Origin: a virus
Lineage: Duplodnaviria > Heunggongvirae > Uroviricota > Caudoviricetes
Reading direction: 5' to 3' (one strand)
Length of the DNA stretch: 11,998 bases
Virus record (IMG/VR): IMGVR_UViG_2548876935_000016
The notes under the pieces were generated by a model that was given only the letters and a program-made list of their open reading frames with translations, was not told the DNA's origin and made no database searches. Both the position numbers and the translations under genes were made by a program. Positions 268 to 11,998 of the stretch are shown piece after piece. Numbering within the stretch: position 1 is the stretch's first letter; each line of letters opens with the position of its first letter.

Positions 268-300
268 AAGCCCTCGCGTTGAGGGCTTTACTGATTTTTT
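268..300 (+). terminator. Putative intrinsic terminator between convergent grxA and ybjM
   Basis: Inverted repeat aagccctc (268-275) / gagggctt (281-288) with 5-nt loop gcgtt, followed by tactgatttttt with a T6 run at 295-300. The T run is not immediately adjacent to the stem and the stem overlaps the ybjM 3' end, so this is tentative. Confidence 0.4.
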
Positions 301-665
301 CTGTGCTGTGGTTTAAACAAACTACTGATAAATAAGAAACACAGTGCCCCCAGCGCACACCAGAACACCGCGCTTAGTAACCATGCCAGCTCTTGCCAGA
401 ATGAGCGGGTCGGTGAAAAAAACAGCCGCATAATAAGCATTGAACAGGGTGCCGCCAGCATTGCGCCAAATAGAGGTTTCAGGACTTCTCTACTCTGTGA
501 AAAGAAACTGGCAACTGCTCCAGGAAGAATGAAAAACAGCAATCCGATTTCAGGATGCCCGGCAGCCCGAAAAGCGCCTTTCATGTGCGTCGCCAGAAAA
601 AGGCACACCACAATGAAGAGGACAAAACAGCAGATTGCCCCCGCCCAACGTTGTTTATGTTTCAC
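288..665 (-). CDS. ybjM: Inner membrane protein YbjM
   Basis: 125-aa hydrophobic ORF convergent with grxA. Length, sequence and synteny (between grxA and ybjL) match E. coli YbjM as I recall it. Confidence 0.88.
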   Translation of the reverse strand: MKHKQRWAGAICCFVLFIVVCLFLATHMKGAFRAAGHPEIGLLFFILPGAVASFFSQSREVLKPLFGAMLAAPCSMLIMRLFFSPTRSFWQELAWLLSAVFWCALGALCFLFISSLFKPQHRKNQ

Positions 666-934: not shown

Positions 935-2620
935 GTGAATATAAACGTCGCCGAATTGTTAAATGGGAATTACATTCTGTTATTATTTGTGGTCCTCGCG
1001 CTTGGGCTATGTCTCGGAAAGTTACGACTTGGTTCGATCCAACTGGGTAATTCCATTGGCGTTTTGGTCGTATCACTGTTATTAGGCCAACAACATTTCA
1101 GCATTAACACCGACGCGCTTAATCTTGGCTTTATGCTGTTTATTTTCTGCGTCGGGGTCGAAGCCGGACCGAACTTTTTTTCCATTTTTTTTCGCGATGG
1201 GAAAAATTACCTAATGTTAGCACTGGTGATGGTTGGCAGTGCGCTGGTGATCGCCTTAGGGTTAGGTAAGCTGTTTGGCTGGGATATTGGCCTGACGGCC
1301 GGTATGTTAGCAGGCTCTATGACGTCGACACCGGTTCTGGTCGGTGCTGGCGATACACTGCGTCATTCCGGCATGGAAAGCAGGCAGCTCTCACTGGCAC
1401 TGGATAATCTGAGCCTCGGGTATGCCTTAACCTATTTAATCGGTCTGGTGAGTTTGATTGTTGGTGCGCGTTACTTGCCGAAATTGCAGCATCAGGACTT
1501 ACAGACCAGCGCCCAGCAAATCGCCCGCGAACGTGGCCTGGACACTGATGCCAACCGTAAGGTTTATTTACCGGTGATCCGCGCCTATCGCGTCGGCCCG
1601 GAGCTGGTGGCCTGGACCGACGGCAAAAATCTGCGTGAACTGGGTATTTATCGACAAACCGGCTGCTACATTGAACGTATTCGACGTAACGGGATTCTGG
1701 CAAATCCAGACGGTGATGCCGTGCTACAAATGGGCGATGAAATAGCGTTGGTAGGCTATCCCGACGCCCATGCCCGACTCGATCCCAGCTTCCGTAACGG
1801 TAAAGAAGTTTTCGATCGTGACCTTCTCGACATGCGTATCGTCACTGAAGAAGTGGTCGTTAAAAACCATAACGCTGTAGGTAAACGTCTCGCACAACTG
1901 AAGTTGACCGATCACGGTTGCTTCCTTAACCGCGTCATTCGTAGCCAGATTGAGATGCCGATAGATGACAACGTCGTGCTTAACAAAGGTGACGTTTTAC
2001 AAGTCAGCGGTGATGCCCGTCGCGTAAAAACCATCGCCGATCGCATCGGCTTTATCTCGATTCACAGCCAGGTCACTGACCTGCTGGCATTTTGCGCCTT
2101 CTTTGTTATTGGGCTGATGATCGGGATGATCACCTTCCAGTTCAGCACATTCAGTTTCGGCATGGGGAACGCTGCCGGGTTGTTATTCGCCGGAATTATG
2201 CTGGGCTTTATGCGTGCTAACCACCCGACCTTCGGTTACATTCCGCAAGGTGCATTAAGCATGGTGAAAGAGTTCGGCTTGATGGTGTTTATGGCAGGCG
2301 TTGGTCTGAGCGCCGGTAGCGGTATTAATAACGGCCTGGGCGCGATTGGCGGTCAGATGTTGATTGCCGGATTAATTGTCAGTCTTGTGCCCGTGGTTAT
2401 CTGTTTCTTGTTCGGTGCTTATGTATTGCGAATGAACCGCGCACTGTTGTTCGGCGCAATGATGGGCGCACGCACCTGCGCGCCGGCAATGGAGATCATC
2501 AGTGATACAGCTCGCAGTAACATCCCTGCGCTGGGCTATGCGGGCACCTACGCAATCGCCAACGTCCTGCTGACGCTGGCAGGGACAATCATCGTCATGG
2601 TATGGCCAGGATTAGGATAA
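935..2620 (+). CDS. ybjL: Putative transporter YbjL (AAE / aspartate:alanine exchanger family, two membrane domains with central cytoplasmic domain)
   Basis: 561-aa ORF with hydrophobic N- and C-terminal halves around a soluble central region. Starts at GTG 935 ([16 protein letters not shown]...). Matches E. coli YbjL in length and sequence from memory, and in synteny. Confidence 0.93.
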
Positions 2621-2855: not shown

Positions 2856-3074
2856 TCAAAGAGAGAGCGCCACCTGTCCTGATTTCATTGGATGCGGCTG
2901 AACCGGATTTGACTCTTTTGGCGTTGCAATCGAACGAACAAAAGTTTCATGGGTAACAAAAGTATGGCTGCAGTTAATGTTCTGGCACTGGTTGTAACGC
3001 TCTTTGGTCAATGAAGATACCTGAAAACTGCTGCGAGTATGGGCGGCACTTCCACACAGTGGGCAAATCATCAT
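2856..3074 (-). CDS. ogr: Ogr-family zinc-finger late-gene transcriptional activator
   Basis: 72-aa product MMICPLCGSAAHTRSS...KERYNQCQNINCSHTF with the CxxC...CxxxxC zinc-finger arrangement characteristic of P2 Ogr / P4 Delta. The track ORF starts at 3107, but a GGGGAGA Shine-Dalgarno sits 8 nt upstream of the ATG at 3074, which gives the 72-aa length I recall for P2 Ogr. Position immediately after D at the prophage end matches P2 gene order. Confidence 0.85.
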   Translation of the reverse strand: MMICPLCGSAAHTRSSFQVSSLTKERYNQCQNINCSHTFVTHETFVRSIATPKESNPVQPHPMKSGQVALSL

Positions 3075-3164
3075 TTTTCGAGTTCTCCCCATTTTTGCTA
3101 AATTCACAATAATGATACCGCATTATTCCATTTTGCAAACTTAAAAGTTCTCCATTGCGAAGAA

Positions 3165-4265
3165 TCATTCCATTTCGAAATCATCAATCCTCACTTCAAG
3201 CTCCAGACTGGTTGTAAAACCGTTATCCGGGCTGACGGTATGTGTCAGAGTCGTAATGGTCCATTCCGCATCATCTATCGGCTGTTTAAAACCACTGACC
3301 TTCACAGGCATTTCCGTGTAGAGATCTGCCCGCCCTTCCGCCAGTTGTAGCGAGAATGACGCAACGCCACGTTGCAGGCGTTCCCACTGCATTTTCGCTG
3401 CCCGTTCAGCGTTGCTCCGGTTGGCATAAGTGCGATTAAGTACCAGCACGTTTTCATCCGTCCCCACCAGGTAATCGCCCTGCTTCGCTTCCGGCTCTTT
3501 CTTCTGCTTCTTAGTCCTGCGCTTACGCTTCACCGTAGTGCTTTCTTTCTTCGCGGGTTCGCGGGTATGCAACCAGCTGGCAATTACCCCCGTGTAAGCT
3601 CCGCGATCTGCCAGGGTAAAGCGGTGACTGTCGCCGTCCTTACGTGTGATAGTAATCACCGGCAGTGGTTTACCGCTGGCGCTTTTGCCCTGTCCCTGCC
3701 GGATGAATAACAGATTGCCATTTTTCACCGATGCAATGGCACCGTACTGGCGCGCCAGCCGCATCAAAAAACTGCCGTCACTCTCATTAGTCTGGTCTAT
3801 ATGCTCCACGGGCTTATCCGACAGGTCTTTACCCAGTGCCATCTTCAGCTTGTGCCGCGCGGCTATTTCCTTCACCACTTCCCCGATGGTGGTGTTATGC
3901 CACGATTTTTCACGGCGGGTATTCAGCGTTTCCCGAAAATCAGCACTTCGCGCCCGGATAGTCAGGCGGTCCGGTGCGCCAGTGTGTTCAATCTCGTCTA
4001 CCGTGAATGCCCCTTTCGGGAAAAGCGGCTGCCCCTTCCAGCCCAGCGCCAGCGTAATGACCGCACCACGGCGCGGCAGCACGATTTTTCCGTCGGCGTC
4101 GTCCAGCTCCAGATCAAGCTGGTCCGCTTCAAAGCCCCGATTGTCCGTCAGCGTCAGACTCATCAGGCGGTTATCCAGCACAGTGGTGATATCCTTCCCC
4201 TCAATACTGATGCTGAATGCGGGAGTTTTGTTTCCTTTGTTAAGCAGTTCAGAGCTGAAATTCAC
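3165..4265 (-). CDS. D: Tail protein D (late control gene D family)
   Basis: 366-aa ORF with gpD-like motifs (LTLTDNRGFEADQLDLELDD...). Apparent GTG start at 4265 overlaps the U stop (GTGA), suggesting translational coupling. Position between U and ogr matches P2. Confidence 0.9.
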   Translation of the reverse strand: MNFSSELLNKGNKTPAFSISIEGKDITTVLDNRLMSLTLTDNRGFEADQLDLELDDADGKIVLPRRGAVITLALGWKGQPLFPKGAFTVDEIEHTGAPDRLTIRARSADFRETLNTRREKSWHNTTIGEVVKEIAARHKLKMALGKDLSDKPVEHIDQTNESDGSFLMRLARQYGAIASVKNGNLLFIRQGQGKSASGKPLPVITITRKDGDSHRFTLADRGAYTGVIASWLHTREPAKKESTTVKRKRRTKKQKKEPEAKQGDYLVGTDENVLVLNRTYANRSNAERAAKMQWERLQRGVASFSLQLAEGRADLYTEMPVKVSGFKQPIDDAEWTITTLTHTVSPDNGFTTSLELEVRIDDFEME

Positions 4266-4747
4266 GACAGCAGCCCTCCCACCGTTTTACTGATATCGCT
4301 TAAGGCAGACGTTGCCGTGTCCTGCAGATTATTCAGTTGAGTACTGAGATCACCGAACATATCGGACAGGGATTCATCCACCCGTTTTAGCGAAAGGGTG
4401 AACTCAATCCTGCGCGGCATACCGTCGCGGAAAAACTCCGTTTTAGTCTGATTCAGTCCCTCAATCACATACATGCCGTAAATCGTGCCGCTGCCTTCAA
4501 TCAGGGGCCATGCTTTCCCCTGTTCTGCCATCTGCTCCAGTGCCAGCAACGACAGCCTGCCGCCTGTTATCTCCGGCATAAGAACACCGGAAAGCGTCAG
4601 CATGTCGTTTTCCGGTCCCAGAAACTGCGTGGACGGACGACGGTTTACCCGGCTGTTTGCCGCATGTCGCCAGCTGCGTTGATACTGCAGTTCCTGATAC
4701 GGAACGGTGCGCAGCATAAACACGTACAATCCCAGCACCATCATCAT
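4262..4747 (-). CDS. U: Tail protein U (tail terminator-like)
   Basis: 161-aa ORF beginning MMMVLGLYVF... Its ATG overlaps the T stop codon (ATGA at 4744-4747). Size and order match P2 gpU. Confidence 0.9.
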   Translation of the reverse strand: MMMVLGLYVFMLRTVPYQELQYQRSWRHAANSRVNRRPSTQFLGPENDMLTLSGVLMPEITGGRLSLLALEQMAEQGKAWPLIEGSGTIYGMYVIEGLNQTKTEFFRDGMPRRIEFTLSLKRVDESLSDMFGDLSTQLNNLQDTATSALSDISKTVGGLLS

Positions 4748-7700
4748 GCGTCGTATCCCCCCTGATCGCTGTAGTTACTCCTGGCTTTTGCCTTCAGCCT
4801 GCGTTCACGTTCATCAAGCTGGCGTGCCACCTCCCGCGCAATATCCTGCGCACTTTGTCCTGGCTGCGTCTGAATGATGATCTGCGTCGGTGCCTCAATC
4901 CGTTGAACGAGCGGCACAGTGGCTGCGCGACTCACAATTGCTTCTCCACCTTTCGCGGGAAGTGCCAAAGGGTGCAACGGTGGAAGCTCTGCTGGCGCGG
5001 CAGCAACGCCCATCATTCCGGCAACAACGGCAGCCAGTGCAGCTGTATTTCTCCGGCTGGTCACATTTGCCGGGCCGTTAACAATTTCCGGCCCGTTTTC
5101 ACCGACGATGCCAAACTGCCCGCGCGGGATATAGCCGCCGCTGTCATACATCCCCGCAAAGCCATATCCCCATGACGGAAAACCACCCGATGGCATCATC
5201 ACTTTACCGTCTGCATTCACCGTCGCAGGTTGCTGACGCGTCACGCTTTCCGGCAGTTTCGCCTTTGCAGCCTCTTTACTGACAATGCCGAGTTTATCCA
5301 GCAACCACGACACACCTGATTTAAGCGACTCAAGCGGGTGCATCACCATATTCAGACCTTCTGCCAGCGCCTCACCAAATCTACGGCCCATTGCAGCTGC
5401 GCTGTTCAGTTCCTCAGAAGTCGATTTAACTGGCGAAAGTAAATCAGTGAACCAGCCCCACAATGCCTGCACCTTGTCGCCAATCCACTGGAAAACCGGC
5501 CGCAGTGGTTCAAATGCAGCACTGATCGGGCCAGCAGCCGCTTTAAAGCCTTCAACCACACCACCCAGAAAAGCGCTGATGGGCTGCCAGTATTTCCAGA
5601 CAACCAGCGCCACGCCTGCCAGTGCAGCCACAACCAGACCTATCGGACTGAGCAATACCCCAAGCACGCTGCCAACGCCCACCAGAGCTGCACGCAACAA
5701 CGCAAACGGTGACATGACGAGCCATCTAATCACACCCCCAGCCCCCCTTACCGAAGTAACCAACGGTGCAAAGGCAGCACTTGCCAGCCCGCGAATTTTC
5801 GTACCAAGCAGGCGGACCGCTTCGCCGGGGTTAAGAAAAGAAGACACCAGAGTTTCACCCGCCTGCCGGGCATGTTCTTTGATTTTATCCAGCGCCCCGT
5901 CGCGGAACGCATCCAGGATACCGCCACCGTCATCATCCCCGCCGCCGCTGAGTGCCTCTCGGATACGACTTATCCAGTTAACTGTCTCGCCCGCTTCATT
6001 TCCCGAAAACAGCCCGAATAGTTTTTTCAGTGCATCGCCGGACTGGAACAAACCGGGTGCAAATGAAGTGAACGCCTGGCCCAGGCGCCCCAGCAACGGA
6101 CTGAGCCTGCCAAGACCGGTGAGTGCCAGCGTTTTCATTCCAAAACGCAGCAGGGCGAGCGGCCCCAGAATGGCCGCCATCGCAATCGCCAGGGTGCCCA
6201 GCGCAAGCGTAACCGAAGCCACCACAGCGGCAATCTTCATCAACCGGCCCGCCAGTTCCGGATTAGCTTCCACCCAGCGGCGCATTACTCCCGTCACGCG
6301 CCTTACCGCTTCCATGATTTCCATCAGCGGAGCACGCAGCGTTTCACCCAGGCTGCTGAACGTATTGGTAACCCCGGTTTTCACCAGCAACCACTGAGCA
6401 GAAAGTGAGTCTTTGTTGATGTCGGATTCTTTCTGCATGGAACCGAGCGCATCATTGCCCGCTGTCAGTTTTAGCTGGCGCTGCAGTTCCGGAAGGTTGT
6501 TTGCCAGTTTCGCCGCGTCATCACCAAACTCTTTACCAAACAACATGGTCATGGCAGACAGACGCTTGTCCTGCGGCAGTGCGTTCACCTTCTCCAGCAC
6601 ACGCTGGATAGTTCCCATCGCATCCTTCGTCATCTGCTTTTCAATCACTTCAGGATTGAGTTTCAGCAGATTCATCCCTTCAAAGAAACTCTTGCTTTGC
6701 ATGGTGGCAATGGATAATTCACGCACCATCGCGTTTGCTGCACTGGCTGCAACCTCCGGCGCAGCGCCCAGTGTCAGAAAGGTGGAACCCAGTGCCGCCG
6801 CTTTACGATAATCCAGACGGTCAGCCACACCGCCCAGACGTTGCATCACATCAATGATGTCCGCCCCTTTCGACATGGCGTTATCATCCAGATAGTTCAG
6901 CGCATCGCCGAGCTGTTCAATATTGCGGGTAGGTATTTTGTAGAGCTGGGCGATTTTCCCCAGACTTTCTGACAGTTCATCCGCTGGCAGCTCAAAGGCT
7001 GTTGCCGCCTTTGCTGCCGTACTGGCGAAGGCCAGCAGGTCACGTTTCTGGTCTTCCCAGCTGTCGTCAGGGTTTGCGACGTTCATGCGCGCACCACCTT
7101 CAACCAGTGCAGCGAAATCCACCGCACCGTTTTCCATCGGCAACTGTTCGCTGGCAGCCTTGATGGCATCCTGCATTTCATAAAAACGTGCAGTGCGGTT
7201 GCCATTATCGTCACGCAGACCATTGACCTGCTTTGCCACACCTTTCATGGCATCTTCCATGCTGGTATAGCTTTTTACTGCCGCCATCACTGGTGCGCCC
7301 ATTGCCAGCCCTGCAGCCGTGGTGGTGGCTCCGGCACCTGCAATCCGATCCCTTACTTCAAGACGCCTGGCGTAAGCCCCTCGGGCGGCGTGCATTTTTC
7401 GCTGTTGCTCCCCGACACGTCGTAACCTCGCTTCCTGCTCAGAAAGCTGCCTGTTATAACGCATCGTTTCACGGGTAATGCGGGCCGTCGCACTGGCACC
7501 ATCATTAGCTGAAATACCAGCACGATAAAGTTCTGCACGCACAAGCGCCGTCTGCTGCTGCAGCTTTTTCTGGCGTTCTTCCAGGCGCTGAACAGCCAGC
7601 CGTTGACGGCCCAGAGCAACAACCTGACGTTGCGAAGGCGGCCCCATCGCTCCCAGTTCCTGACTGAGCAAATTTGCACGCTGGCGGGCATAGCTCAGCC

Positions 7701-7917
7701 TGTCGCCTAATTTCTGATTTTCTGCCTGCAGCTTTCGGAAGCTGTCCAGACTGCTCCCGGCCTGATCAAGCTGCTTTATTGCATCGCGGGATTTTTTGAC
7801 AGCAGCAGCCAGTTCTCTTGAACTGGCCTGCGCAGATCGAAATGGGCGGGTGAGCTTGTCAACCGCATTAAGAATGACCTGCAGACGCAGGTTATTGTCA
7901 CTCATGGCTGGCCCCAC
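4744..7917 (-). CDS. T: Tail tape measure protein
   Basis: 1057-aa ORF with an N-terminal coiled-coil-like charged region, Gly/Ala-rich hydrophobic central segments and a C-terminal region, typical of tape measure proteins, in the expected position between E/E' and U. The track start at 7917 is GTG; an in-frame ATG at 7905 overlaps the predicted E' stop and is an equally plausible true start. Confidence 0.9.
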   Translation of the reverse strand: MGPAMSDNNLRLQVILNAVDKLTRPFRSAQASSRELAAAVKKSRDAIKQLDQAGSSLDSFRKLQAENQKLGDRLSYARQRANLLSQELGAMGPPSQRQVVALGRQRLAVQRLEERQKKLQQQTALVRAELYRAGISANDGASATARITRETMRYNRQLSEQEARLRRVGEQQRKMHAARGAYARRLEVRDRIAGAGATTTAAGLAMGAPVMAAVKSYTSMEDAMKGVAKQVNGLRDDNGNRTARFYEMQDAIKAASEQLPMENGAVDFAALVEGGARMNVANPDDSWEDQKRDLLAFASTAAKAATAFELPADELSESLGKIAQLYKIPTRNIEQLGDALNYLDDNAMSKGADIIDVMQRLGGVADRLDYRKAAALGSTFLTLGAAPEVAASAANAMVRELSIATMQSKSFFEGMNLLKLNPEVIEKQMTKDAMGTIQRVLEKVNALPQDKRLSAMTMLFGKEFGDDAAKLANNLPELQRQLKLTAGNDALGSMQKESDINKDSLSAQWLLVKTGVTNTFSSLGETLRAPLMEIMEAVRRVTGVMRRWVEANPELAGRLMKIAAVVASVTLALGTLAIAMAAILGPLALLRFGMKTLALTGLGRLSPLLGRLGQAFTSFAPGLFQSGDALKKLFGLFSGNEAGETVNWISRIREALSGGGDDDGGGILDAFRDGALDKIKEHARQAGETLVSSFLNPGEAVRLLGTKIRGLASAAFAPLVTSVRGAGGVIRWLVMSPFALLRAALVGVGSVLGVLLSPIGLVVAALAGVALVVWKYWQPISAFLGGVVEGFKAAAGPISAAFEPLRPVFQWIGDKVQALWGWFTDLLSPVKSTSEELNSAAAMGRRFGEALAEGLNMVMHPLESLKSGVSWLLDKLGIVSKEAAKAKLPESVTRQQPATVNADGKVMMPSGGFPSWGYGFAGMYDSGGYIPRGQFGIVGENGPEIVNGPANVTSRRNTAALAAVVAGMMGVAAAPAELPPLHPLALPAKGGEAIVSRAATVPLVQRIEAPTQIIIQTQPGQSAQDIAREVARQLDERERRLKAKARSNYSDQGGYDA

Positions 7918-8334
7918 TTCTCTGAATCGCTTTATACCGCCATTCCAGCACTTCGGTCAGCGGCATAACGTCAGTAACGGATGGCGGCCAGTGAAAAATG
8001 GTGGCGATATCTGCCACCAGATCGTCAACCGTCAGGCTGTCGGTAAACCGGCAAGCACCGACTTCTTCAACAAAAAAGTGACAACCTCAACCGACATGGT
8101 TGTGAGATCTGCCGGGTCCATCTCTGCGATTTCCTGTGCAGTCAGTGCCGGACTGGAGATGCGGGGGATCACGGTCATCATCGCGTTCACATCCATATCC
8201 ATAATGGCCTGCAGGCGTGTGCCGCGCAGCGCACCGGACTGCGGTTTACGCAACACAATTTCGGTAATTTCTGTTTTACCGCGCATGATGGGGGTATCCA
8301 GTTGAATGGTCTTTTCAGTCTGTTTATCGCTCAT
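7898..8334 (-). CDS. E': Tail assembly chaperone E+E' (product of programmed -1 ribosomal frameshift)
   Basis: Hand translation: after a -1 slip on T TTT TTG (plus-strand 8071-8077, read on the minus strand) the -1 frame stays open for 57 codons (VEEVGACRFTDSLTVDDLVADIATIFHWPPSVTDVMPLTEVLEWRYKAIQRSGASHE) and stops at TGA 7900-7898, overlapping the T ATG at 7905. Predicted about 145 aa, close to the roughly 142 aa I recall for P2 E+E'. Confidence 0.6.
8032..8334 (-). CDS. E: Tail assembly chaperone E
   Basis: 100-aa ORF directly upstream of T and downstream of FII. Carries a TTTTTTG slippery heptamer 13 codons before its stop, as expected for the E/E' pair. Confidence 0.85.
   Translation of the reverse strand: MSDKQTEKTIQLDTPIMRGKTEITEIVLRKPQSGALRGTRLQAIMDMDVNAMMTVIPRISSPALTAQEIAEMDPADLTTMSVEVVTFLLKKSVLAGLPTA
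8071..8077 (-). other. Slippery heptamer T TTT TTG for the E/E' -1 frameshift
   Basis: Minus-strand sequence gtc ACT TTT TTG ttg in the E frame; heptamer of X XXY YYZ form located 13 codons before the E stop. Confidence 0.6.
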
Positions 8335-8388: not shown

Positions 8389-8904
8389 TCAGAGGCCGAG
8401 GGCGTTGCGGTGCGCTTCCATCAGGTCCACACCGTCCACAATTTCCACCATGTTGATAAGGTCCACTTCATAGAGCACCTCACCATTGATGGTCAGCTTC
8501 GCGTAGCTGTTGGTACTGGTCACTTTGGTGGTGTTGCTTTCGCCCGTCTTCCACTCGCCGGAATCCACTTCTTTGTGACGTCCACGCACGACAAGCTCCA
8601 CGGCCTGCACTTCCCCGGTATCGTCACGCTGGATAGAGCCGGTAAAGCGCAGCTGGATGCCATCCACCGTGGATTTGCCCATCTGCTTAAACAGCAGCAG
8701 TTCAGTACCACCAATGGAAAATTCTGTATCCAGTGCACTGTCATCCAGTCCCAGATCCACATCCACTGCACCCGGCATTCCGCCGCCGCGATACTTCTCA
8801 TATTTGCGGGTAAATTTCGGCAGCGTCAGCGACTCAACGATCCCCTGCCAGTTGTTCCCGTCGTTAAACAGGTTCAGGTGTTTTAATTTGCGTGGTAAAG
8901 CCAT
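8389..8904 (-). CDS. FII: Major tail tube protein
   Basis: 171-aa ORF immediately downstream of the sheath gene; size and order match P2 FII. Confidence 0.9.
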   Translation of the reverse strand: MALPRKLKHLNLFNDGNNWQGIVESLTLPKFTRKYEKYRGGGMPGAVDVDLGLDDSALDTEFSIGGTELLLFKQMGKSTVDGIQLRFTGSIQRDDTGEVQAVELVVRGRHKEVDSGEWKTGESNTTKVTSTNSYAKLTINGEVLYEVDLINMVEIVDGVDLMEAHRNALGL

Positions 8905-8913
8905 GTTGTCCCC

Positions 8914-10086
8914 TTACGCGCTGACCTGGCTGGCGAAATTCACCAGGTACTGATCGGTGATGCGCTGACGCAGCATCAGGTTTTCAAGTGGCGGCACTGG
9001 CGTGTAGTCGTAGTCGATGGTGAGTTTTCCGGCTTTCAGCGTGTCTTTGTCGTTCACCGACTCATCCAGCCAGCAATCACCACCAATGAGATAGCCCTGA
9101 CTGACCAGGCTGCGCATTTTGGCGCGGATACCTTCGATAATGTCGCGGGCCAGCGACGGGTTAAGCGTTTTATCCACCGCCCACATGTGTGCTTCTGCCA
9201 TCGTGTCCATCAGCACCTGCGCCGTGCGGGTGTAGTTTTCGAAGGCAAAGAGCGGGTCATCACTCAGGCAGCGGGAACCCCAGAAGCGGAAACCGTCTTT
9301 ACGCACAAGCGTGGTGACGTCGTTCTGGTTCAGCAGACCTGCATCGGTTGCCGGGTCCTGCAGATCCCAGAACACATCTGCAGAAATTCCGGTGACACCG
9401 TTCACGCCCACGTTGGACAGGCTTTTGTGCCATCCGGTCTGCTCGTCAATTTTGGCGCGCAGACCAAGCGCACGGGCGGTGGCATATGCCGTTGCTTCGG
9501 CATTCAGCACCGTGTCCCAGCCAGTAAAGTCAGGCCAGATCAGCATCCCTTCGCGCTGGCTGAAGTTTTCGCGGTAAGTGATCGCCTCCTGCACTGTCTT
9601 GCAGCCATACGCTGACAGGTAAGCAAATCCACGCAGGCTTTGCGCCACGCTCAGCAACTCAGTAGCTACCGCCTTGGTGTCGTGGCCTGGCACGCCGAGA
9701 ATGCGCGGTTTAACGCCGAGCTGTGACTGGGCAGATAACAGGGCTTTCATACCTGTTTTTTTACCTTCAGCAGTCACTGCGCCGATGATATTGGTCGTGG
9801 TTTCGTCTTCCGTTTCACCCTGCGGCACACGCACAACAATGGTCACGGGTTTTGCCTGGTCAGCGATGGCATCCAGCGAACGGGCCAGAGTACCGGACTC
9901 ACCCGCTTTACCGCTGGCAGTCAGCACATCAGTGATCAGCACGGGTTTATTAAGAGGAAACATTTTTGCATCGGCATCATCGCCCGTGCAGACCATACCC
10001 ACGATGGCGGTGCTCACCGTGGTAATAGATCGGGTGCCTTCGTTGACTTCAACAACGCGCACCCCGTGGTGGTAATCCTGAGCCAT
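8914..10086 (-). CDS. FI: Contractile tail sheath protein
   Basis: 390-aa ORF, first gene of the FI-FII-E-T-U-D operon, with AGGAGG 9 nt upstream of the ATG. Sequence family and size match P2 FI. Confidence 0.92.
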
Positions 10087-10162
10087 AGTGGCGAACCTCC
10101 TGATTGGATTAGGCTTCGCCCTATGTTGAAGTGATTGTGCCTGACAAACAGCTAAGCGCAGT

Positions 10163-10180
10163 TGTGTCGTTATTCACACA
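10163..10180 (-). promoter_or_regulatory. Candidate Ogr-dependent late promoter element (TGT-N12-ACA dyad) for the FI operon
   Basis: TGTGTCGTTATTCACACA fits the TGT-N12-ACA dyad I recall for P2/P4 late promoters, and the outer TTGTGT / ACACAA arms are perfect inverted repeats. The dyad centre is about 85 bp upstream of the FI ATG, consistent with a -55 activator site plus a short leader. No strong -35 is visible, as expected for an activator-dependent promoter. Confidence 0.5.
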
Positions 10181-10228
10181 AAATAACGGTATTTGTCTGC
10201 TTGCAGGGATAATCAACATAATGCTGAT

Positions 10229-10795
10229 TCAGGGGGATTCATTGATCTTATTTGCCGGAAATTTTCTATAAATGGTAGAAACGCCTACATCAAAAATCAG
10301 TGCAATACGCTGTCTTGATTCTCCGGCCTCGAGTAAACGCCCAATCTGTGCCCACTGTTCGGTGGTCAACTTAGGACGGCGTCCACCTACTCTGCCTTTG
10401 GTACGAGCTGCAGCCAGCCCTGCCCTGGTACGTTCAACTATCAGTTCGCGTTCCATTTCAGCCAGGGCACCCATGACATGAAAAAAGAAACGGCCCATTG
10501 GGGTACTGGTATCAATACTGTCAGTCAGGCTTCTGAAATTCACACCACGCTGGCGCAACTCTTCTATCAGCGTAACAAGATGCCGCATACTGCGCCCCAA
10601 CCTGTCCAGCTTCCAGACAACCAGCGTGTCTCCTGCCGATAGTATCCTGAGCAGTTTTTTCAGCCCCGGTCTGTCGGACTTAGTGCCACTGATTTTATCC
10701 TCAAAAATCCGCTCACATCCCGCGCAGTTCAGCGCATTGCGTTGCAAATCGGTGTTCTGGTCATTTGTTGACACGCGTACATAGCCAATAAGCAT
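10229..10795 (-). CDS. Serine site-specific DNA invertase (Gin/Cin/Pin/Hin family)
   Basis: 188-aa product MLIGYVRVSTNDQNTDLQRNAL... with the catalytic-serine N-terminal motif and a C-terminal helix-turn-helix, closely resembling Mu Gin as I recall it. The track start at 10801 gives MTM...; the ATG at 10795 has AAGGAGA at good spacing and matches the family N-terminus. Confidence 0.9.
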   Translation of the reverse strand: MLIGYVRVSTNDQNTDLQRNALNCAGCERIFEDKISGTKSDRPGLKKLLRILSAGDTLVVWKLDRLGRSMRHLVTLIEELRQRGVNFRSLTDSIDTSTPMGRFFFHVMGALAEMERELIVERTRAGLAAARTKGRVGGRRPKLTTEQWAQIGRLLEAGESRQRIALIFDVGVSTIYRKFPANKINESP

Positions 10796-10822
10796 GGTCA
10801 TCTCCTTGAATAAAAATCGGGG

Positions 10823-11317
10823 ATGATGCCAGTTAGTCGTAATCGCTGCATTTTCTTAAACGTTGGTTTGGGAGAAGGTGCTCCAGCTATTGGCGTTCCG
10901 TTCTTCTGGCCGTCCGCCGCAATGCCAAATACTGTAATCGACAGTTGGTCCAGTATGGTGTTTTTGAAGTTCAACGGCGCGAAATTCTCTGCCACTGATT
11001 ACCCTGTGCTGGCGAAAGTGTTTCCGGCGCTAGCATTACCTGACGCACGCGGTGAATTCCCACGCATCTGGGATGACGGGCGCGGTGTGGATGCTGGACG
11101 CACGTTATTAAGCTTTCAAAGTGACGACTTTAAGGCCCACGGTCATAACTTCGAATCCTGGCCCGACAGCGGCAATCCGGCATCAAAAGGGGGGGCTGTA
11201 GATGCTCGCGGCGGTAATGGAAATAGATACATCACATCGGGTGTGGTCAAGGAAACGGGAGGCACCGAAACCCGACCAAGAAACATAGCATTCAACTTTT
11301 TAGTAAGGGCGAAATAA
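10823..11317 (+). CDS. Tail fibre variable C-terminal cassette (Mu S / P1 S / Stf-like variable part), currently detached from its constant N-terminal part
   Basis: Open frame ending ...GGTETRPRNIAFNFLVRAK, with the LPDARGEFPRIWDDGRGVDAGR motif typical of invertible tail-fibre C-termini. There is no upstream tail-fibre body on this strand, the frame crosses the crossover site, and its stop overlaps the downstream tfa start (TAATG). The ATG at 10823 is probably not a real start. Confidence 0.75.
   Translation: MMPVSRNRCIFLNVGLGEGAPAIGVPFFWPSAAMPNTVIDSWSSMVFLKFNGAKFSATDYPVLAKVFPALALPDARGEFPRIWDDGRGVDAGRTLLSFQSDDFKAHGHNFESWPDSGNPASKGGAVDARGGNGNRYITSGVVKETGGTETRPRNIAFNFLVRAK
10851..10876. other. 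gix/cix/hix-like 26-bp inversion crossover site (left boundary of invertible tail-fibre segment)
   Basis: TTTTCTTAAACG-TT-GGTTTGGGAGAA: two imperfect inverted 12-bp half-sites around a 2-bp core, matching the TTnTCnnAAACC half-site pattern of Gin/Cin/Hin recombination sites. It lies about 55 bp from the invertase start and inside the tail-fibre reading frame, as gix lies inside Mu S. Confidence 0.6.
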
Positions 11318-11910
11318 TGACACCTGTTTTTGATGAAAATGGACTGGCTACAGTGCCTGGTGATATGCGTTGTTTTTATTATAATGCAGTAACGTATGAA
11401 TATATGGGCTGGTCTGATGAATATATTAATACTGGTGTAAGTATGCCCGCCTGCTCCACTGGTATTGACCCTGGCGAATACATTCCGGGAAGAGTGGCAG
11501 TATTTACGGGTAAGGGATGGAGCCATGAAGAAGACCATCGCAATGAGACCGTTTACTCAACTGAAAATGGCGCAGCTGTTACAGTGGATTATATCGGTGC
11601 CATCAAAGACGGTTATGTCACGCTTTCACCGTTAACGCCATACGATAAATGGGATGGTGAGAAATGGGTGACGGATACCGAGGCACAGCATAGCGCCGCA
11701 GTAGAAGCGGCAGAAGCACAGCGCCAGTCGCTGATTGATGCTGCAATGGCTTCCATCAGTCTGATTCAACTGAAATTACAGGCTGGGCGGAAGCTGACGC
11801 AGCCAGAAAACACCCGACTTAACGCTGTGCTGGATTACATTGACGCGGTGACGGCAACAGATACCAGCACAGCGCCGGACGTCATCTGGCCTGAACTGCC
11901 GGAGGCGTAG
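11317..11910 (+). CDS. Tail fibre assembly protein (Tfa / Mu U / P2 G family)
   Basis: 197-aa ORF translationally coupled to the fibre cassette. C-terminus ...TAPDVIWPELPEA resembles the conserved Tfa C-terminal motif. Confidence 0.88.
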   Translation: MTPVFDENGLATVPGDMRCFYYNAVTYEYMGWSDEYINTGVSMPACSTGIDPGEYIPGRVAVFTGKGWSHEEDHRNETVYSTENGAAVTVDYIGAIKDGYVTLSPLTPYDKWDGEKWVTDTEAQHSAAVEAAEAQRQSLIDAAMASISLIQLKLQAGRKLTQPENTRLNAVLDYIDAVTATDTSTAPDVIWPELPEA

Positions 11911-11998
11911 GCCATTCAATATCTGGCGCACCGGAAGTATCGACCAGTTCCAGTGCGTCCAGATAATCCAGCCACAAATTATATTGCGCCAGTTCCTC
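11882..11998 (-). CDS. Alternative tail fibre assembly protein (Tfa'), 3' end only; 5' part beyond window
   Basis: Hand translation of the minus strand gives ...EELAQYNLWLDYLDALELVDTSGAPDIEWPTPPAVQAR followed by TGA (11884-11882). It shares the ...APD(I/V)xWP..P C-terminal motif with the plus-strand Tfa, and the two genes converge with 3' ends overlapping by about 29 nt. Confidence 0.75.
   Translation of the reverse strand, partial: EELAQYNLWLDYLDALELVDTSGAPDIEWPTPPAVQAR

Follow-up and report, generated by a model that had tools for sequence, protein, structure and literature searches.

A predicted Fis-dependent DNA invertase of the Gin/Cin type in the Z/fun position of a P2-like prophage

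INTRODUCTION

In P2, the interval between G and FI contains a terminator, the gene fun(Z), which is encoded on the opposite strand, and the PF activator site, in this order. We take Fin of Fels-2 to be a comparable invertase of a P2-like prophage, encoded between the fibre genes and FI. The Z/fun hotspot often encodes a DNA invertase, with the adjacent genes inverted (10.1101/2024.10.15.618418), and sequencing and PCR have demonstrated inversion in P2-like EPEC prophages (PMC4272514).

The spacing of the two Fis sites in the Hin system is 48 bp. The classical Fis consensus, KNNYRNNWNNYRNNM, reportedly goes back to Hübner and Arber in 1989. Fis sites are characterized by G/C at ±7, Y-R steps at ±3–4 and an A/T-rich centre (PMC4784862), and in Hin about 100 bp separate the proximal Fis site from the crossover site closest to it (PMC3798978). 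On the protein side, Hin residues Q151, R154 and L155 make contact with Fis; these three, together with the basic residues 47, 48 and 51, are conserved only in Fis-dependent invertases (PMC3798978). In P1, the record NC_005856 annotates an 'enhancer of Cin-mediated C-segment inversion' at nucleotides 19–90 of the cin gene itself. As for the late genes of P2, TGT-N12-ACA is the consensus of the four Ogr-dependent late promoters (PMC3931495).

Here, we analyse a stretch of 11,998 nucleotides from the IMG/VR virus record IMGVR_UViG_2548876935_000016, referred to as the window, and in particular the gene at 10229–10795. This gene is very probably a Gin/Cin-type, Fis- and enhancer-dependent DNA invertase of a P2-like (Peduoviridae) prophage, and the same high confidence extends to the explanation of the whole locus as a fibre switch. 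The locus is ordinary, its layout has already been described and nothing about it is new. It would be a textbook example of a host-range switch acting through the tail fibre, in a P2-like prophage that is widespread, and it matters mainly for correct annotation. At least 80% of 10087–10900, that is, the invertase with its flanks, is present in 663 of 5426 complete E. coli genomes.

GENOMIC SETTING

The window contains a P2-like prophage tail module, which is encoded on the minus strand. The features on the FI side of the invertase are as follows:

288–665, minus strand: host YbjM-family membrane protein
935–2620, plus strand: host Asp-Al_Ex/TrkA_C permease
2856–3107, minus strand: ogr-type late activator gene (Ogr_Delta zinc finger, 6.7e-22), presumed to act on the dyad upstream of FI
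3165–4265, minus strand: D (Pfam gpD)
4262–4747, minus strand: U (Pfam gpU)
4744–7917, minus strand: T, tape measure (ORF list and tape-measure annotations of relatives)
8032–8334, minus strand: E (Pfam)
8389–8904, minus strand: FII, tube (Pfam)
8914–10086, minus strand: FI, tail sheath (Phage_sheath_1, 7.8e-33; Phage_sheath_1C, 6.6e-23)

The gene order H-G-(slot)-FI-FII-E-T-U-D-ogr matches that of P2, and this synteny places the invertase in the G–FI interval, at the Z/fun position that the original prediction had assigned to it. Host DNA occupies the left part of the window, so the prophage end (att site) should lie between 2620 and 2856. The tape measure protein has 1057 aa here versus about 815 aa in P2 (2448 bp), which would predict a longer tail.

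THE INVERTASE GENE AND ITS PRODUCT

10229–10795, minus strand: DNA invertase CDS, Gin/Cin/Hin/Pin subclass of the serine recombinases, 188 aa, intact (Pfam, structure match and identities)

In the program-made list, the open reading frame runs from 10229 to 10801 on the minus strand and encodes 190 aa. The Shine-Dalgarno motif AAGGAG at 10807–10802 directly adjoins the ATG at 10801 and is separated by 6 nt from the ATG at 10795, and the homologues have an annotated length of 567 bp. Because of this spacing and these annotations, we take 10229–10795 as the correct CDS, which is also how the gene had originally been delimited.

The identity of the gene is directly supported by several kinds of comparison. 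The ORF contains the Pfam domains Resolvase (1.2e-52) and HTH_7 (1.4e-15). Among solved structures, the top match is Mu Gin (3uj3, 1.1e-92), and gamma-delta resolvase is matched at 1.4e-33. At the protein level, the identity is 74% to Mu Gin, 77% to P1 Cin and 67% to the Hin-like protein encoded in L050, one of the related loci surveyed below (all designated by L numbers). The catalytic Ser9 sits in the YVRVST motif, which is invariant in the alignment, and all columns that are invariant in Gin, Cin and the Hin-like protein are kept. The equivalents of Hin Q151, R154 and L155 are Q150, R153 and L154, likewise invariant in the alignment, and the basic helix-B residues that correspond to Hin 47, 48 and 51 are K46, K47 and R50.

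THE PREDICTED RECOMBINATIONAL ENHANCER

10706–10777, minus strand: equivalent of the enhancer (gene nt 19–90), placed by aligning the gene with P1 cin, in which the enhancer is annotated
10759–10773, minus strand: predicted Fis site I, crossover-proximal, TGTCAACAAATGACC (gene nt 23–37, centre 10766)
10711–10725, minus strand: predicted Fis site II, distal, GCGCGGGATGTGAGC (gene nt 71–85, centre 10718)

The window gene, cin and gin align without gaps over their first 150 nt, with a mean column identity of 85%. It had originally been expected that Fis sites would be found in roughly 10700–10790, and a scan of 10650–10795 for two sites about 48 bp apart had been proposed as the check, the absence of Fis-like sites counting against the idea. 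Two sites are indeed found, at 10711–10773; both match the Fis consensus and their centres are 48 bp apart. The centre of site I is about 98 bp from the centre of the crossover site. The two-site pattern has one match in the 12-kb window, exactly at this place. The pattern is degenerate, and its chance expectation is 0.79 for the entire window and roughly 0.01 for a 150-bp target. By itself, the two-site match is therefore weak evidence, and its weight comes from position and conservation.

Taken singly, sites I and II would be weak Fis sites. At −7 of site I, T stands in place of the preferred G, and the centre of site II (GGATG) is rich in G/C. The enhancers of Mu and P1 have the same two atypical features. 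The gene would carry in cis a putative enhancer with two Fis sites at the 48-bp distance.

Conservation of the sites was followed in a comparative set of 93 non-redundant invertase genes, which were taken from IMG/VR loci, species-representative genomes, Mu and P1, aligned by codon, and are 59–97% identical to the window gene at the nucleotide level. A perfect match to the consensus is present in 91 of the 93 homologues (98%) at the register of site I (gene nt 23) and in 88 (95%) at that of site II (gene nt 71); at all other registers of the gene, at most 44% of the 93 match. Some of the most divergent homologues have Asn instead of Gly at codon 26, by which the Fis site is kept and becomes more AT-rich.

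Conservation of codons 8–29 could also be explained by a constraint on the protein or on translation initiation (the region of the catalytic Ser9, or mRNA structure) in a gene with no Fis enhancer. Site I spans the catalytic-serine motif VSTND, which is invariant in the protein, and reduced synonymous variation is common at the 5′ ends of genes. However, the measure applied here takes in only synonymous codon differences between identical amino acids and relates them to the gene-wide expectation. On this scale, the 93 genes vary at 0.08–0.22 of expectation at codons 9–12 (site I) and at 0.21–0.38 at codons 25–26 (site II), and the two strongest troughs of the whole gene are codons 8–12 and 23–29. 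The reduction is bipartite: codons 13–24 in between vary normally, at 1.0–1.3, except for codons 16 (0.66) and 21 (0.87), and the ratio in the rest of the gene is about 1.03. Moreover, codons 2–7, which are nearest to the start codon, are almost unconstrained (0.55–0.99). When five-codon windows are paired at a distance of 16 codons, the pair that begins with codon 8 has the smallest value of all 167, 0.41 against a median of 1.03. Each of the troughs falls on one of the two consensus registers, which are 48 bp apart, and the homologous stretch of the P1 record is annotated as the enhancer of Cin inversion. Against this pattern, we consider a purely coding or translational origin of the conservation to be highly improbable, and prefer the reading of codons 8–29 as a Fis enhancer. 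In practical terms, the first 90 nt of such invertase genes would be both coding sequence and enhancer, and recoding them freely in engineering would be unwise.

THE CROSSOVER SITE AND THE INVERTIBLE SEGMENT

10851–10876, no strand assigned: gix/cix-like crossover site of 26 bp, boundary of the invertible segment, on the plus strand TTTTCTTAAACG TT GGTTTGGGAGAA
10865–11317, plus strand: silent cassette for an alternative tail-fibre C-terminus, in frame from the GLGE codons in the crossover site (weak Collar match)
11317–11910, plus strand: silent alternative tail-fibre assembly gene inside the segment (Caudo_TAP, 2.2e-27)
11885–11998, minus strand: 3′ end of the expressed tail-fibre assembly gene, which runs off the window (L167 CDS 5156–5596, offset 6729)

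The crossover site is an imperfect dyad located 56 bp upstream of the invertase start codon, and it aligns with gixL and gixR of Mu and with cixL and cixR of P1 on the core AAACC-NN-GGTTT. Of the switch itself, the window holds this one crossover site, and the full arrangement is reconstructed from relatives. By equivalence with L167, the partner site would lie beyond the window end, at about 12673–12698. Inverted partner sites were detected in the relatives L006 and L167; in the latter, the partner was missed by the repeat search and was found by a pattern search allowing one mismatch. The two sites are 1.82 kb apart in L167, and the arms in L006 are 1818 nt apart.

The fibre cassette and the assembly gene, both on the plus strand, are oriented against FI and are therefore regarded as silent copies. 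The start of the cassette's ORF at 10823 in the program-made list is incidental. In L006, in-frame fibre ORFs of 473 and 494 aa result from the two orientations, with the joint at ...LGLGE. L006 had been tried as a near-identical proxy for the window; it was dropped, as its segment cassettes differ, and L167, L018, L009 and L028 were used instead.

Inversion is directly visible among these relatives. In L018 and L009, the part corresponding to 11267–11998 is inverted relative to the flank with FI and the invertase, with the break at 10877, and the assembly cassette 11317–11910 is found the opposite way round. L028, in comparison, has the segment in the orientation of the window, and both isomers therefore exist in nature. 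The sequence comparison shows that the segment inverts in the relatives, and the crossover site and silent cassettes adjoining the invertase agree with the original view that the enzyme serves a fibre switch. As for the neighbours named in that view, FI on one side was correct; on the other side, the crossover site and the silent fibre cassette adjoin the invertase, not the assembly gene.

Mechanistically, the invertase would bind two crossover sites, the one at 10851–10876 and its partner beyond the window end, which would lie within the fibre gene at a distance of about 1.8 kb. The two sites in codons 8–29 of the invertase gene, centred at 10766 and 10718, would be occupied by host Fis. The crossover sites, the invertase and the Fis-bound enhancer would then assemble into an invertasome, in which the segment flips. 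Such a flip would swap the C-terminus of the expressed fibre together with the assembly gene, and so change the host range.

Two further observations concern the segment. Firstly, homology with relatives that are 96–98% identical (L006, at position 6209; L018 and L009) ends exactly at the crossover site, 10877/10878, and different relatives have different cassettes within the segment. The crossover site may also be a boundary for the exchange of cassettes. Secondly, the silent fibre cassette of L167 (4130–4591, equal to 10859–11320 of the window) is called a partial 'integrase' pseudogene in RefSeq, which looks like a misannotated cassette of the invertible segment. Silent fibre cassettes beside an invertase are prone to such misannotation.

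THE SPACER AND THE PREDICTED LATE PROMOTER OF FI

10163–10180, minus strand: TGT-N12-ACA dyad TGTGTGAATAACGACACA, predicted Ogr-type activator site for the late promoter (PF) of FI (conservation)

FI lies on the same strand as the invertase, 142 bp downstream, and the spacer between them contains no ORF of at least 50 aa. That the FI promoter region directly follows the invertase had been part of the original prediction, and a perfect dyad is found there. TGT-N12-ACA is present in all 80 of the FI-related loci, with its first T 87–94 nt upstream of the FI start, and it is kept even in loci in which the remaining spacer is unrelated. The annotated PF activator site of P2 lies at a similar distance from FI. 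In cargo-bearing relatives that still align, homology to the window ends at −95/−98, which is the upstream edge of the dyad.

When the spacer was simply aligned to the PF region of P2, the matches were poor and shifted. Because of this, the PF assignment rests on the dyad and its conservation across the 80 loci instead of on homology with P2. On this basis, 10163–10180 is predicted to be an Ogr-type late promoter element upstream of FI, and promoter activity would depend on the ogr-type product.

A scan of 10000–10950 for sigma-70 promoters and terminators returned nothing above chance and no minus-strand terminator, and there was no sigma-70-like candidate for an invertase promoter between 10796 and 10850. 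The lack of a minus-strand sigma-70-like promoter in the spacer is as expected, because the promoter would be activator-dependent.

THE G–FI INTERVAL AMONG RELATIVES

The comparison across P2-like prophages that had been suggested for this locus was carried out on 80 IMG/VR loci with FI 90–100% identical to that of the window, 75 of which are informative by their upstream sequence. An intact invertase lies directly upstream of FI in 31 of the 75, and the invertase–FI gap is the same as that of the window in 27 of those 31. Invertase plus an N6/N4 DNA methylase before FI is found in 4/75 (L070, L077, L078 and L083), and one locus (L050) has another layout. The slot is empty in 17 loci, in which the assembly gene is about 140 bp from FI. 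The remaining 17 comprise eight with a larger gap and nine without a query match; among them are Acyl_transf_3 genes (L032, L043, L044, L056 and L081), a methylase (L082) and an unknown ORF (L067). In several of the nine no-match loci, the slot appears to be empty and to lie next to a fibre type that has diverged. Slot content varies among close relatives.

Invertase remnants make up the last 5/75 loci (L022, L036, L053, L060 and L075). They are fragments of 17–137 codons, and a frameshifted copy is present in L001 (3830–4388). The FI spacer is intact in these cases, which indicates that the switch decays repeatedly.

In the species-representative genomes, 11 of the 77 informative invertase homologues are located just upstream of a P2-type sheath gene (among others in Dryocola, Siccibacter, Pseudocitrobacter, Pantoea, Mixta and Enterobacter), and the rest lie elsewhere.

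The cargo genes deserve a short description of their own. The N6/N4 DNA methylase, with a DPPY motif, sits just upstream of the FI dyad (L070 6169–6920; L077, L078, L083 and L082) and occurs with or without the invertase; in L070 it is in two overlapping frames, which suggests a frameshift. Membrane acyltransferases of the Acyl_transf_3 family are a recurrent cargo on either strand (L032 5572–6678, L043 5585–6769, L044 5684–6772, L056 4570–5637 and L081 4626–5831) and are candidate modifiers of surface polysaccharides. In L050, a Hin-like invertase (4298–4900, minus strand) is encoded at a distance of about 2.2 kb from FI and on the other strand, and a second, truncated invertase ORF (6481–6858, plus strand) lies beside FI; this arrangement may be multi-site and shufflon-like. 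Methylases and O-acyltransferases have already turned up in the G–FI interval, which makes it a promising region of these prophages for finding cargo genes.

The survey bears on whether the window copy could be a decaying relic, either with a non-functional invertase or switch or with a gene before FI deleted. The five truncated invertases listed above and a frameshifted invertase in CP019275 are precedents for such decay, and the partner crossover site lies outside the window. However, the ORF is intact and full-length, with all of the invariant columns of Gin, Cin and the Hin-like protein kept, and the close relative L167 has both crossover sites. Judged by the identical invertase–FI gap, the 142-bp spacer length is shared by 27 relatives, and the spacer is without similarity to the methylase interval. 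We consider a relic very unlikely, and the window's own invertase is predicted to be active. A lost gene between invertase and FI had been named as the finding that would speak against the original view of the slot. An extra gene at this place is a minority state (4 of the 35 loci with an intact invertase), and the 48 bp that separate the invertase stop from the dyad contained no methylase remnant. The description of the slot as holding the invertase and nothing else was right in that no further gene stands between the invertase and FI; as a refinement, the silent fibre cassettes are also located in the slot. In all three of its parts, the position of the invertase, the adjoining FI promoter region and the predicted enhancer, the original view is supported by sequence and comparison.

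It is also worth considering where cargo enters. The actual point of insertion is apparently located between the stop codon of the invertase and the dyad, and the invertase itself seems better seen as part of the switch module. The methylase of L070, L077, L078 and L083 follows the invertase and precedes FI, the homology that cargo-bearing relatives share with the window breaks off just upstream of the dyad, at −95/−98, and relatives without the invertase are generally also without inverted cassettes. On the other hand, the difference is mostly descriptive, as by position the invertase is in the G–FI interval, and the published hotspot analysis counts invertases among the contents of the Z/fun hotspot (10.1101/2024.10.15.618418). 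Moreover, in L032 and L044 the acyltransferase stands at the place of the invertase, not downstream of one. As a replacement for the placement in the Z/fun position, an invertase that belongs to the fibre module alone, with a cargo point that is empty in the window, is possible but somewhat doubtful, and we retain the Z/fun placement.

A more specific proposal can be made, which we hold to be unlikely: cargo would enter Z/fun at a precise junction that directly adjoins the dyad on its upstream side, and the invertase, the enhancer and the crossover site would form a portable cassette bounded by the crossover site. The precise junction is proposed because homology with every cargo type that can still be aligned stops at −95/−98, and the crossover site is proposed as the other recombination boundary of the cassette because homology breaks at 10877/10878. 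If true, the crossover site would be, besides its role in inversion, a junction for module exchange between otherwise unrelated fibre cassettes.

COMPARISON WITH KNOWN SYSTEMS

The arrangement resembles that of Gin and the G segment of Mu, in which the invertase gene also lies outside the segment, with its 5′ end beside a crossover site, and is transcribed away from the segment. As in Mu, the segment holds pairs of an alternative fibre C-terminus and an assembly gene, and the predicted enhancer is in the 5′ coding region. Unlike Mu, the phage is P2-like, the segment is about 1.8 kb rather than about 3 kb, and the downstream neighbour is the late operon of the sheath gene, whereas in Mu it is com/mom.

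With Cin and the C segment of P1, the locus shares an enhancer region that aligns without gaps and similar crossover sites. However, cin is transcribed towards its segment and cixL overlaps the 3′ end of cin, whereas here it is the 5′ end of the gene that faces the segment.

As in Salmonella Hin, the two predicted Fis sites are in the 5′ part of the invertase gene; this comparison is made with the Hin-like gene of L050 and with the literature, not with hin itself. Hin differs in that it is encoded inside its own invertible segment and switches a flagellin promoter rather than fibre genes.

P2 itself is without an invertase, and its fun(Z) is read from the opposite strand. In phages Cartapus and 500465-1 the arrangement is identical, including the 142-bp spacer, and the gene of Cartapus is annotated as 'Mu phage Gin invertase homolog'.
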